From the NCBI RefSeq assembly GCF_000027125.1, contig NC_017626.1: a DNA stretch of 64,000 nt. One strand, written 5' to 3'. The DNA is from Escherichia coli 042. GTDB lineage: Bacteria > Pseudomonadota > Gammaproteobacteria > Enterobacterales > Enterobacteriaceae. Both the position numbers and the translations under genes were made by a program. Below, one piece after another: positions 5,937-60,010 of this stretch. Under the pieces are notes generated by a model. That model had not been told where the DNA came from. It did no database searches and was given only the letters and a program-made list of their open reading frames with translations. Each line of letters starts with the position of its first letter. The stretch's first letter is position 1.

Positions 5937-6467
5937 GAATCATTGACTCGCTGTAAAAAATTATGCATATATTATATATGATTGTCATGTCATATCCTGC
6001 AATTCCTCTTGTATCACTTCATGATTTTATATTTTATTAATTAACGATTTTATTTTGTATTAGCTGAATGGATTCAGTCCTATAGAGTTATATATTTATT
6101 AATAAGACGATTCTTATATTTTGATACCTAATAAGAGTTACCACTTTTACCGGCTGTATATTAAATGTATTTCTCTTGCTTTTGTTTATATTTTGAGTTG
6201 ATTTGAGTTCCTGGATACATATAATGCGCAGGTATTAGAGACTGGGGGGGAATGTAATGATAAAGTTAAGAGTGTTAACTTAAAATAAGTTTTCAGTAGT
6301 AACTTGCTATTTTATTACCCTCTGAACTACATACTCAGATATGTGGTTGCCAATGCTATGCAAAATTTTTGAATTTTTATATGCGATGAACAGTAACCGG
6401 AATGGCATTTAATGCGTTGCTGTTTATGCAATCTTGGTTTTATTTGGATGTATTGCTGGAGATTGTG

Positions 6468-55994: not shown

Positions 55995-56828
55995 TTAACG
56001 CATATTCAGTTTATTGGCGTGGTAGGCAATATGCTCGCCAATAAAACTGGAGACAAAATAATAGCTGTGATCATAACCCTCGTGATAACGGATTAACGTC
56101 TTGATATTCATCTCCTGGCAGATCTTTTCAAGATTTGGAGTCCGCAGCTGTTCTGCGTAAAAATCATCACTCAACCCCTGATCAACCATTATTTCCGCAA
56201 CGCGTTGACCTTGTGAAATAAGGCTCACCGGATCGTAATCCAAGCACGCCTCTTTATTTTCACCAAGATATGCGGTAAAGGCTTGCTGTCCCCACGGTAC
56301 TTGCGATGGGGAGACAATGGGCGAAAACGCCGAGACGCTGACATATTCATCTGGGTTACGTAACGCCAGCACCAGTGCGCCCAGCCCGCCCATAGAATGA
56401 CCTGAGATAGACTTTCTGGCCGTTGCCGGAAAATGTTGCATCACTAAATCCGGCAGCTCGTTGTGGATATAATCATACATTTTGTAATGTTCATTCCACG
56501 GCGCTTGCGTTGCGTTCAGGTAAAACCCGGCACCTTGCCCGAGATCGTAACGGTCGGCATCTGCGACATGACTGCCTCGCGGACTGGTGTCTGGCGCAAC
56601 AACAATAATGTTGTGCTCAGCCGCGTAACGTTGCATCCCCGATTTAGTAATGAAATTCTGCTCGTTGCAAGTCAGCCCTGAAAGCCAGTACAACACCGGC
56701 AATTTTTCACTTGCGGCTTTTGGTGGGAGATAGACGCCGACATTCATTTCACATTTCAGTGATGGGGAATAATGCCGATACACATTTTGCCAGCCGCCAA
56801 AGCTGGCATGTTTTTCAATGAGTTCCAT
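55995..56828 (-). CDS. frmB: S-formylglutathione hydrolase
   Basis: 277-aa ORF, esterase-D family with GHSMGG nucleophile motif. Confidence 0.92.
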   Translation of the reverse strand: MELIEKHASFGGWQNVYRHYSPSLKCEMNVGVYLPPKAASEKLPVLYWLSGLTCNEQNFITKSGMQRYAAEHNIIVVAPDTSPRGSHVADADRYDLGQGAGFYLNATQAPWNEHYKMYDYIHNELPDLVMQHFPATARKSISGHSMGGLGALVLALRNPDEYVSVSAFSPIVSPSQVPWGQQAFTAYLGENKEACLDYDPVSLISQGQRVAEIMVDQGLSDDFYAEQLRTPNLEKICQEMNIKTLIRYHEGYDHSYYFVSSFIGEHIAYHANKLNMR

Positions 56829-56919: not shown

Positions 56920-58059
<1,140 letters not shown>

Positions 58060-58063
58060 TCAG

Positions 58064-58339
58064 CTATTTAAGATAGGCACGAACCAGTTCAATAGTGTCG
58101 TCAACGGATTGGCTGACTTCGCGGCTGTAGCAGTCATTTCGGTCAAACGTTTCCCGGATATGGCTTTCAAGCACTTCTGCCATCAGCCCGTTAGCCGCGC
58201 CCCGAACGGCAGCGATCTGTTGGAGTATGGCACGGCATTCGGCATCACCCTCCAGCGACCGTTCCAGAGCATCAATCTGCCCCCGAATACGACGAACTCG
58301 AGTAAGGACCTTTTTCTTCTCTTCCGGAGTACTGGGCAT
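58064..58339 (-). CDS. frmR: formaldehyde-responsive repressor (CsoR/RcnR family)
   Basis: ORF 58064..58360 begins at GTG; start set at ATG 58339 ([21 protein letters not shown], 91 aa). Confidence 0.9.
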
Positions 58340-58363
58340 TTCGCACCTCATCATCTGCACGCA

Positions 58364-58416
58364 ATATACTATAGGGGGGTATGCTATATGTCAATGCATA
58401 CCCCCCTATAGTATAT
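58364..58416. promoter_or_regulatory. perfect 21-bp inverted repeat in the frmRAB promoter, candidate FrmR operator
   Basis: atatactataggggggtatgc - 11 bp spacer - gcatacccccctatagtatat, 25 to 77 bp upstream of the frmR start. Confidence 0.7.
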
Positions 58417-58454
58417 AACACTGGAGAATAAAATTTATCCGGTGAATGTGGTCG

Positions 58455-58502
58455 GAAAACAAAGAGGAAAGGGGGGGGCTAATCGGCAGGGAAGGCCCCC
58501 CC
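58455..58502 (-). terminator. rho-independent terminator of yaiO
   Basis: on the reverse strand a G7 / C8 stem (ccggggggg...cccccccc) is followed by tttcctctttgtttt; 23 bp downstream of the yaiO stop. Confidence 0.6.
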
Positions 58503-58524
58503 GGATAGCGGGCGGCAGAAGGAA

Positions 58525-59298
58525 TCAGAATTTCCAGGTCAGATGGGCTGCAAGTTGCAGACCGTTATAATCATCGGTTGGGGTGTCGTACCACACTTTA
58601 CCTGCCGTCAGCCCGAGATTAAGTTGCTCAGTCAGCGGTTGAATACGTTGCAGACTGACGCTCTTCATGCTGCCGTAGCGTGTTTCTGGCGTCCAGTCAT
58701 AGGTGTAAGCACCTGTTCCGCGGCTTAGCCATAGTTGCGTATAACCAGTGCCGCGCGGGTCATTCAGACGCACGGAAATCATATTGCTGTAACTACCACC
58801 TGCATCGCTGGAGTCATAATGGGTATAGCGATAGCTGGTGATCACCGGGCCAGTATAGAGGGATACGCCGCCTTGCCAGGCATCGACTTCGACATCATCG
58901 TAATATTTAGTGTAGCGATAACCGGTCGTGAAAAGCGTTTTTGGCAACAGTGCCAGGTTAATATCCTGACGAAAATCCTGGCGGGCAAAGACCGGCGTAT
59001 TATCCGCAAAGGCAATACCCGTTCGGGTTGTCAGCCAGTTATTCCATTTATACCAGACCGCACCCTGACCGCGAGTGGCATTGAAATGTTCAGTTTCATA
59101 ATCACGACGCCCCTGGGAAAGATTAAAAAGCAGCGTTGCGTTTTCAACTTTCGCCACCAGTTCAGCATACGCTAAATTACGGTTGCCATGATCGCCAGAA
59201 TAATCGGTAAAATCGTAGCCCGCGGTAATGGAAGTTAACCCGGCATAAGCGGGCAATGTGCTAAAAATTGCTGCCGCTAATAACGTCCGTTTTATCAT
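58525..59298 (-). CDS. yaiO: outer-membrane beta-barrel protein
   Basis: 257-aa ORF with signal peptide MIKRTLLAAAIFSTLPAYA and C-terminal ...HLTWKF. Confidence 0.88.
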   Translation of the reverse strand: MIKRTLLAAAIFSTLPAYAGLTSITAGYDFTDYSGDHGNRNLAYAELVAKVENATLLFNLSQGRRDYETEHFNATRGQGAVWYKWNNWLTTRTGIAFADNTPVFARQDFRQDINLALLPKTLFTTGYRYTKYYDDVEVDAWQGGVSLYTGPVITSYRYTHYDSSDAGGSYSNMISVRLNDPRGTGYTQLWLSRGTGAYTYDWTPETRYGSMKSVSLQRIQPLTEQLNLGLTAGKVWYDTPTDDYNGLQLAAHLTWKF

Positions 59299-59299
59299 T

Positions 59300-60010
59300 T
59301 TAATCTCCTGTACGGATAAGTTCTTGTCGGAGTGAATAAGTTCCGGTAGGTAAATTACGTTCTACAATCACGCGCGGGCCAAGTTGCGTGTTCGGGGAAA
59401 TAATTCGCCCAGGCAAAATAATAACTTGTACACCAAGGCGTGAACGCTGCCCGATATAACAACCTAATTTATCGCATTCGGTAGCGATAATTCCCTCTGG
59501 AGTTCGAACAGATACGGGCTGTTGATCCAGACGATGATTACTGGTACGTACTTGTGCGCCCAAATATGTCTGGTTTGCAACTACCGAGTCGGCGATAAAG
59601 CATTGCGGACCAATCGTTGCTTCCGCTTCAATAACCGCATTTTTAATTTCGGTGGCAAAACCAATTTTTACGCCATTGCTGATTATTGTGCCAGGACGAA
59701 TAAACGCATAATTACCTATCAGGCAGTTTGCGCCAATCACTACCGGACCCTGAATAACGGCACCGTGACAAATACGGGTATTCGCGCCGATAACAACTTC
59801 ACCTGCAGTTTCATCAATAATTACCTGGTCTGCAATCTGAATATTTTTCTCTTTAACATTAAGCTTCAGAAAGTTTTTCAGTTCCTGTGACAGAAGGTTG
59901 GGAATAAGCGGTTGACGCTTCCACCAGTGCGGAATAGCGGGTGGGTTTGTCGCGCTGAGGTTCGCGTCCAGTAAAAAAGGCAATAAGTCCATAAATAATC
60001 CAGATGGCAT
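59300..60010 (-). CDS. yaiX: hexapeptide-repeat (LbH) acyltransferase, uninterrupted; start codon uncertain
   Basis: 236-aa ORF with repeated [LIV]G-x-x-x-x-I hexapeptide motifs; the N-terminal ~50 codons overlap the yaiP 3' end in another frame; stop lies 1 bp from the yaiO start. Confidence 0.65.
   Translation of the reverse strand: MPSGLFMDLLPFLLDANLSATNPPAIPHWWKRQPLIPNLLSQELKNFLKLNVKEKNIQIADQVIIDETAGEVVIGANTRICHGAVIQGPVVIGANCLIGNYAFIRPGTIISNGVKIGFATEIKNAVIEAEATIGPQCFIADSVVANQTYLGAQVRTSNHRLDQQPVSVRTPEGIIATECDKLGCYIGQRSRLGVQVIILPGRIISPNTQLGPRVIVERNLPTGTYSLRQELIRTGD

Follow-up and report, generated by a model that had tools for sequence, protein, structure and literature searches.

The G homopolymer that lies between yaiO and frmR in the window, the 64-kb stretch of Escherichia coli 042 DNA analysed here, belongs to an ordinary variable spacer and is not a conserved regulatory device. 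With moderate confidence, it is read as a hypermutable homopolymer, assumed to be near-neutral, which sits in the C-rich 3′ region of yaiO and is accompanied by a private base change that perfects a quasi-palindrome. A first-pass annotation of the sequence had paired this G8 run with a nearby C7 run as the stem of a yaiO terminator, the strength of which would change with tract length; the G8/C7 hairpin exists in one strain only, because it depends on a private point mutation.

Genomic context and sequence features

The coding sequences of yaiO (58525–59298; an outer-membrane beta-barrel protein), frmR (58064–58339), frmA (56920–58029) and frmB (55995–56828) are all on the minus strand, and a spacer of 185 bp (58340–58524) lies between the yaiO stop codon (UGA, 58527–58525) and frmR. 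As observed from these coordinates, the G8 tract is located in the 3′ untranslated spacer, 47 nt past the yaiO stop and approximately 110 bp upstream of the predicted frmR start, which bears out the earlier placement of both tracts directly 3′ of the yaiO stop on the yaiO strand. The annotation had further proposed read-through into frmR antisense. The observed gene orientation reverses this part of the proposal: since yaiO and frmR are co-directional, transcription leaving yaiO crosses the frmR promoter and operator in sense. An open reading frame of 42 aa on the plus strand, running over the tract (58442–58570), was considered as a gene and rejected, as the natural length variants are non-triplet and would shift its frame.

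A 231-nt query matched the locus in 5,415 of 5,426 complete E. coli genomes, with full-length matches in 4,280. Approximately 20% of E. coli lack yaiO and have other genes adjoining frmR; genomes of the ST131 and O157 types have the frmR promoter and lack the yaiO segment entirely. The yaiO–frmR spacer is the DNA commonly cloned as the formaldehyde-inducible Pfrm promoter. The K-12 strains ZK1142 and ZK1143 are reported to differ from ZK126 at an frmR/yaiO intergenic site (PMC7858067). On the frmR side of the spacer, the neighbouring G6/C6 palindrome (58364–58416; perfect inverted-repeat arms of 21 nt including the G6 and C6 runs), which had already been taken for the frmR operator, is the published FrmR operator and matches its tandem type I sites centred at −29 (PMC5146963). 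It overlaps the predicted frmR promoter on the minus strand (−35 TTGACA, 58394–58389; −10 TAGTAT, 58371–58366).

Both runs named by the first-pass annotation were confirmed by direct reading of the sequence and by a regular-expression scan: G8 at 58471–58478, corresponding to C8 in the yaiO-sense RNA, and C7 at 58496–58502 (plus-strand letters), the latter depending on a private G>C change at 58498. A repeat search identified a perfect 8-nt inverted repeat, GGGGGGGC (58472–58479) and GCCCCCCC (58495–58502), with 15 nt separating the arms. Six G or C runs of at least 6 nt occur in the 64-kb window, four of them inside 58374–58502 (G8, C7, and the G6 and C6 of the frmR operator). Under Markov models of orders 5 to 1, the window is expected to hold 1.6–5.0 runs of at least 7 nt (3 seen) and 0.3–1.1 runs of at least 8 nt (1 seen); as these counts are within expectation, the number of long runs is not abnormal for the composition. 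The unusual feature is the presence of two complementary runs 17 nt apart, rather than the number of runs.

Length polymorphism of the G tract

The comparison of tract lengths across E. coli genomes that had been suggested as a check of the terminator proposal revealed G6 to G11 as well as interrupted forms, and the tract is hence far from invariant. Alleles were searched with queries of 69–71 nt with an unmasked right flank, which matched 4,349 complete genomes, and their frequencies were estimated from identity bands and evenly spaced row samples (60 rows). The alleles read directly comprised G7, G8, G9 (Nissle 1917), G10 (K-12 MG1655), GGGGGTGGGG, GGGGATAGGGG, and a divergent GAGGGGC haplotype. 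By these estimates, the observed distribution among complete genomes was dominated by G7 (~27%), G8 (~21%; ~857 exact matches) and G10 (~15%; ~641 exact matches), followed by G9 (~8%), 11-nt forms such as G11, GGGGATAGGGG and similar ones (~7–8%), and interrupted tracts of the GGGGGTGGGG type (~7%). The divergent GAGGGGC haplotype accounted for 336 records, and a 6-nt tract, deduced from length, for at most ~1% (at most 58 records in its identity band).

Among 64 metagenome contigs, G7 (18), G8 (16), G9 (8), G10 (5), G5TG4 (5) and G4ATAG4 (3) were found together with six rarer forms. Some of the length differences between assemblies may be long-read errors at homopolymers, but the metagenome contigs, assembled from short reads, show much the same spectrum, which suggests that the variation is mostly real. 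When 55 contigs were aligned over 400 nt, no columns varied nearly as much as those of the tract, and length varied on identical 400-nt SNP haplotypes, from G6 to G9 on the commonest, G7 to G9 on the second, and G9 to G10 on the K-12-like one. Interrupted tracts followed distinct haplotypes. The four genomes nearest to the window comprised three with G7 and one with G8, a difference to which assembly errors could contribute.

Within each laboratory lineage, tract length appears stable: G10 is carried by the K-12 derivatives MG1655, NCM3722 and DH10B, the tract of XL1-Blue is also 10 nt long, and G8 is shared by BL21 and ATCC 11303, two B strains. This apparent stability argues, indirectly, against fast switching. 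Judged from these alleles, the tract shows the pattern of a slippage-prone homopolymer that is not rapidly switching. The tract may correspond to an intergenic mononucleotide repeat already used for typing (Gur-Arie 2000; Diamant 2004), the gene then being called yaiN. The rate of indels climbs steeply with homopolymer length (PMC11754648), and the pattern of the tract fits this relationship.

With the contingency loci of Neisseria, Haemophilus, Helicobacter and Campylobacter, and with the mononucleotide typing loci of E. coli, the tract shares a poly-G run of 7–10 and a length that differs between, and sometimes within, close lineages, consistent with replication slippage. A run of at least 7 is present (G8 here, G6–G11 elsewhere), and its length differs among close relatives and on one haplotype; however, the tract lies in a 3′ untranslated spacer, outside any reading frame or promoter spacer, so that no on/off switch would result from its length. 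Unlike contingency loci, moreover, it is stable in laboratory lineages (G10 in K-12, G8 in B), and many of its natural alleles are stabilised by an interrupting T or A.

In 87 genomes, the IS110-family element ISEc20 is inserted within the tract. The tract is thus a recurrent landing site for ISEc20, and could help define the target specificity of this element.

A private base at position 58498

A 62-nt query over the C7 run matched 3,834 complete E. coli genomes, all with at most 98.4% identity, so that 0 of the 3,834 carried the identical C7 allele. In every other allele read, position 58498 is G, giving CCGCCCC. Likewise, C at 58498 was found in 0 of 64 metagenome contigs by a scan accepting either base, all of them having G.

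The closest complete genomes are 99.7% identical to the window over 18 kb, i.e. about 0.3% diverged. Between 54000 and 64000, the nearest of them, SCU-105, differs from the window at four sites (56244, 60348, 58471 and 58498). The difference at 58471 is a tract indel, G7 in SCU-105 versus G8 in the window, and these 32 bases hold half of the differences found over 10 kb. In BEC1-S17-ESBL-09, another close relative, G8 is found together with G at 58498, the transversion being the only local difference from the window.

Alternative folds of the yaiO 3′ region

Two hairpins can be drawn in the yaiO-sense RNA. Hairpin A (58495–58516, minus strand) joins GCCGCCC (58516–58510) to GGGCGGC (58501–58495) in a 7-bp stem with an 8-nt loop, and begins 8 nt after the yaiO stop codon. 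Hairpin B (58472–58502, minus strand) has an 8-bp G/C stem (58502–58495 with 58479–58472) and a 15-nt loop, and is followed on its 3′ side by the U-rich tail UUUCCUCUUUGUUUU (58456–58470, minus strand). Because both use 58495–58501, the two hairpins are mutually exclusive. In the common alleles, the DNA segment GCCGCCC (58495–58501) is perfectly complementary to GGGCGGC (58510–58516), which yields hairpin A.

Minimum free energy (MFE) folding placed hairpin A, with the C-run unpaired, in all seven other alleles, and hairpin B in the window only, where the MFE structure is the 8-bp GGGGGGGC/GCCCCCCC stem (−19.4 kcal/mol; z of only −0.55 against dinucleotide shuffles). The same switch was observed in silico over the ensemble, in which hairpin A had a probability of 0.98 and hairpin B of 0.002–0.003 in the common alleles (G7, G8 and G10), versus 0.00 and 0.97, respectively, in the window allele; the pairing probability of the G-tract in the common alleles was 0.002. 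Hairpin A has an energy of −16.0 kcal/mol, and hairpin B of −18.3 kcal/mol in the window and about −12 to −13 kcal/mol in the common alleles, where it consists of 3 bp, a C/C mismatch or a bulged C, and 4 bp. The common alleles folded as hairpin B (about −13 kcal/mol) only when segment 1 was held open, the first 18 nt being forced unpaired.

Hairpin A pairs in 98% of cells over eight distinct alleles, that of E. whittamii included, and the window SNP is its sole break; a single C>U change, in E. whittamii, keeps the pairing as U·G. No compensatory change in hairpin A was found among these eight alleles, which amounts to conservation and not covariation, and this conservation could merely reflect young sequences. 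Hairpin B pairs in 88% over the same alleles, its central pair being G–C in the window only, and showed no covariation among the alleles compared. The proposed pairing of the G-tract with the C-tract consequently holds for the window allele (MFE structure; P = 0.97) and fails for the common alleles, which form hairpin A instead (P = 0.98). As C7 is private and hairpin A is favoured in the common alleles, the G/C-tract stem is confined to one strain and, on these fold predictions, is a one-strain structure.

Termination of yaiO transcripts

The designation of the hairpin as the yaiO terminator is not sustained by its features. Its stem in the window allele, 8 bp and perfect, is within the range of intrinsic terminators (~5–14 bp, GC-rich), but its loop has 15 nt rather than ~3–8 nt, and the tail is separated from the stem by one spacer C in the window, and by three C's in the G10 allele of K-12, the U-tract of UUUCCUCUUUGUUUU being further broken by C and G. 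A consensus terminator scan of 57900–59400 on both strands, which required a loop of 3–8 nt, called no terminator-like site.

A rough score of the d'Aubenton-Carafa type, the values of which are indicative only, was −25 for hairpin B of the window, from −21 to −67 for hairpin B of the common alleles, and −26 for hairpin A, versus +30 for the trp t control and +40 for the his attenuator control. The window SNP combined with a hypothetical 7-base tract, which would leave no spacer C, scored −1.5. The rrnB T1 control, at −25, was flawed, its stem definition having taken U's into the stem. On the same rough scale, the tail of hairpin B in the window scored 1.9 versus 4.2–4.7 for the trp t and his attenuator controls, and the tail value fell with tract length, from 3.2 (7) to 1.9 (8) and 0.66 (10). 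A tract-length effect on termination is conceivable, because extra C's would push the U-rich tail away from the stem of hairpin B.

Conservation is also at odds with an intrinsic terminator, as the C7 arm is found in none of the genomes (3,834) or contigs (64), and hairpin B is absent in E. whittamii. Three loci were available for the cross-species comparison, of which that of E. whittamii was informative and two from Citrobacter had unrelated downstream sequence; E. whittamii keeps hairpin A and has neither a C-run nor a U-rich tail at the orthologous position. The supplements of two studies of experimental 3′ ends in E. coli list neither yaiO nor frmR (PMC7815308; PMC12207403), and papers naming yaiO as well as a terminator use the gene as a PCR marker or are otherwise unrelated. 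Rfam 15 returned no match at gathering score; its chance matches (13–27 bits vs 53–139, mostly miRNA-type) fell on the frmR operator palindrome, none being centred on the G/C tracts.

Taken as the intrinsic terminator of yaiO, with slippage tuning its strength and hence read-through toward frmR, the G/C-tract hairpin would resemble those of E. coli in having a GC stem followed by a U-rich stretch, on the same strand and 3′ of a coding sequence, a likeness restricted to the window allele. In this allele, a perfect 8-bp stem (−18 to −19 kcal/mol) and the U-rich tail do lie just past yaiO; the tract is truly variable in length, every G above seven inserts a C between the stem and the U-tail and thereby cuts the tail score, and the tail of the divergent haplotype, UUUCCUUUUUGUU, is better. 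Nevertheless, we regard this model as unlikely, given that the C7 arm is unique to the window sequence, that hairpin A wins in the common alleles (0.98 vs 0.002) and is transcribed first, and that any read-through would be sense and not antisense. Loop length (15 vs the usual 3–8 nt), the spacer C and the broken U-tract set hairpin B apart from typical E. coli terminators, in keeping with the absence of a scan call and with rough scores of −1.5 to −67 vs +30/+40 for controls; its stem is not conserved and hangs on a private SNP, and E. whittamii has no C-tract or U-tail at the position. Hairpin B would be at best a weak, strain-specific terminator.

The composition of the yaiO 3′ untranslated region (58413–58524, minus strand) is C-rich, G-poor and rut-like. 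The C/G ratio of the yaiO 3′ tail is 1.9–2.7 in 78-nt windows, which corresponds to the 98th–99.8th percentile of the 64 kb on both strands, and its first 78 nt contain 26 YC dimers. The region thus has the extent and composition of a rut site (at least ~70–80 nt untranslated, C-rich, G-poor), and C-richness persists in E. whittamii. Like Rho-dependent terminators, it offers ~80–110 nt of untranslated, YC-rich sequence with a C/G ratio of 2–2.7 right after a stop codon, and its C-rich character is retained in E. whittamii despite a different sequence; unlike them, it contains a stable GC hairpin. From this composition, we infer a possible involvement of Rho: across E. coli as a rule, yaiO transcripts would probably be ended by Rho, or else leak toward the frmR promoter region.

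Origin of the change at 58498

In the relatives of the window strain, the two arms form a quasi-palindrome, GGGGGGGC ... GCCGCCCC, with 7 of 8 positions complementary, whereas in the window the second arm is GCCCCCCC and all eight are complementary. The G>C change of the window falls exactly on the mismatched position, turning the quasi-palindrome into a perfect repeat and breaking hairpin A. Mutation-accumulation spectra of E. coli place G>C transversions among the least frequent spontaneous substitutions. Template-switch mutagenesis at quasi-palindromes is established in E. coli (PMC7202029), and we infer it here as the mutational mechanism, the 58498 change being a candidate natural quasi-palindrome-templated mutation. 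A template switch would also account for the otherwise rare class of transversion; as this is a single event, such an origin is indistinguishable from an ordinary transversion. As in the Ripley model and in the thyA and lacZ reporters of the Lovett laboratory (PMC7202029), an imperfect repeat is perfected by a single base change; unlike in those systems, one natural event is involved, and the change destroys an overlapping perfect palindrome, that of hairpin A.

The C at 58498, and thus C7 and the perfect hairpin, might instead be an artefact of sequencing or assembly in the source sequence, which is rather improbable. Private SNPs are to be expected in a lineage about 0.3% diverged over 18 kb, although an error would account for the absence of C at 58498 from the other E. 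coli searched (3,834 genomes and 64 metagenome contigs) and would be favoured by the location of the base within a GC-rich, hairpin-forming stretch that is hard to base-call. The rarity of G>C among spontaneous substitutions also speaks for an error. Conversely, the change is exactly the one that quasi-palindrome templating predicts (PMC7202029), and a private mutation is retained as the preferred reading.

Regulatory alternatives

The mutual exclusion of hairpins A and B recalls an attenuator. In a ribosome-coupled switch of this kind, hairpin A (segments 1:2) would be the anti-terminator and hairpin B (2:3) the terminator, and a ribosome at the yaiO stop would set the balance: by masking part of segment 1 it would free segment 2, allowing B to form, while untranslated RNA would form A and permit read-through, the length of the slippage-prone C-run setting the gain. 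As in the trp and his attenuators, there are three segments, 1:2 and 2:3 exclude each other, and a U-rich tail follows 2:3 only; in addition, segment 1 begins 9 nt past the end of the stop codon, and forcing the first 18 nt of the common alleles to be unpaired does produce B (−13 kcal/mol). In contrast to those attenuators, the elements lie at the 3′ end of a full-length gene and not in a leader peptide, and the pairing of 2:3 gives a weak hairpin in almost every strain and lacks covariation.

Several points make such a switch very improbable. In the common alleles, hairpin B has one mismatch, a 15-nt loop and a poor tail; neither A nor B covaries, and E. whittamii does not preserve the arm and tail of B. 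By textbook footprint sizes, a ribosome at the stop codon would shield just ~2–3 nt of segment 1, and approximately 20% of E. coli have no yaiO, with frmR beside other genes. Were the switch true, E. coli lineages or subpopulations would differ in FrmR-independent sense transcription into frmRAB, the operon for formaldehyde detoxification, and the window strain would be a locked-terminator mutant.

Barely credible, and dismissed here, is the idea that the G-tract acts on the frmR promoter as an auxiliary FrmR site or as an A-form DNA or G-quadruplex element: proteins of the CsoR/RcnR family do recognise G/C tracts, and this tract is similar in length to those of their type I operators and lies within ~100 bp of true FrmR sites, beside the G6/C6 operator and ~110 bp upstream of the frmR start, but its flanks (AGGAAA and CTAATC) form no inverted repeat and contain no ATAC/GTAT or TACT/AGTA match, so that the flanking AT-rich inverted repeats of the type I operator definition (PMC5146963) are missing, its length is neither conserved nor constrained, T or A interruptions occur in many strains, ISEc20 splits it in 87 genomes, and the segment is absent from ST131- and O157-type genomes that keep the frmR promoter.

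Proposed model and significance

In the reading preferred here, G8 would be a slippage-prone, near-neutral homopolymer between the yaiO stop and the frmR promoter, present in yaiO mRNA as a run of C's within a tail that is very rich in C and poor in G. The conserved structure of this tail would be hairpin A (58495–58516), as opposed to the hairpin of the G and C tracts. A private G>C at 58498, confined to one strain, has perfected GGGGGGGC...GCCGCCCC, as a quasi-palindrome template switch would do; by breaking hairpin A, it is predicted to flip the fold to hairpin B, followed by the U-rich tail. In this strain, hairpin B may serve as a weak intrinsic terminator of yaiO or stabilise the 3′ end of its RNA. 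Elsewhere in E. coli, the most likely fate of the yaiO transcript is termination through hairpin A together with Rho acting on the C-rich tail, or else leakage in sense into the frmR promoter region.

For users of Pfrm, it follows that the distal part of the spacer carries a G6–G11 length polymorphism and no convincing terminator insulating the promoter from yaiO. For biology at large, the finding has little significance, as it concerns a commonplace polymorphism of an intergenic homopolymer, with a hairpin private to one strain. It provides an instance of known phenomena, i.e. slippage polymorphism, quasi-palindrome correction and a weak terminator-like hairpin, and the locus is a clean natural case of one base flipping a predicted RNA fold between two overlapping hairpins.

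Homopolymer runs and the frmR operator

Elsewhere in the 64-kb window, the G7 run at 6244-6250 was the only other G/C homopolymer of at least 7 nt. The C-run formed when the G-tract (the length-polymorphic G8 run at 58471-58478 on the plus strand) is read in yaiO-sense RNA was absent at the E. coli position from E. whittamii (locus L016), the spacer of which carries a separate C6 run approximately 40 nt further downstream (L016 2060-2070, GATATCCCCCCACATTC), the E. coli sequence opposite being TTTTCCGACCACATTC. Within K-12, a published comparison records a difference at a frmR/yaiO intergenic position in strains ZK1142 and ZK1143 relative to the ZK126 reference (PMC7858067), which might represent a change in tract length inside this lineage.

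The frmR operator (58364-58416) is a perfect palindrome with 21-nt arms and G6 and C6 cores, and would fold into a 21-bp hairpin in any yaiO transcript continuing in sense towards frmR. Searching the palindrome against Rfam returned chance matches only, mostly to miRNA precursors. Variants of the G6 and C6 runs were rare in metagenome assemblies, each occurring in a single contig.

The accessory yaiO segment

The yaiO-side part of the spacer belongs to an accessory segment that also comprises yaiO, yaiP, and the acetyltransferase gene. Its edge was located from homology breakpoints in two compared loci (L010 and L011) at window positions 58431-58442 and leftward: homology ended at about 58442 in ST131 genomes, with frmR and then REP-like sequence and tauA, and at about 58431 in an O157-type genome, followed by fbpC. 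The frmR-proximal part alone was matched in approximately 1,135 of 5,415 genomes.

The acetyltransferase gene, named yaiX in K-12, adjoins yaiO on the minus strand (59300-60010) and is listed in the window as a 711-nt ORF, versus 582 nt in the RefSeq annotation. This ORF is unbroken in the window, as it is in most strains; the K-12 MG1655 copy, yaiX, is a pseudogene interrupted by IS2.

Insertion sequences in the yaiO-frmR spacer

ISEc20, an IS110-family element of 1,449 bp, splits the G-tract (58471-58478) in 87 of 5,426 complete E. coli genomes (loci L009 and L084). The element was also found at two further, unrelated sites (loci L085 and L086), at one of which it interrupts an rtcB-family gene, and G runs again lay on either side (left, G6, G6 and G7; right, G6, G5 and G5). 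As these runs recur at unrelated sites, either ISEc20 has G5-G7 runs as its target, or the G runs are part of its own ends.

A second element, the IS4-like IS421, lies in the spacer of strain SCU-104 (locus L083) at approximately window position 58489, with the G-tract on one side of the insertion point and the CCGCCCC segment, the common-allele form of 58496-58502, on the other. The yaiO-frmR spacer tolerates insertions, which argues against the presence of an essential element there.
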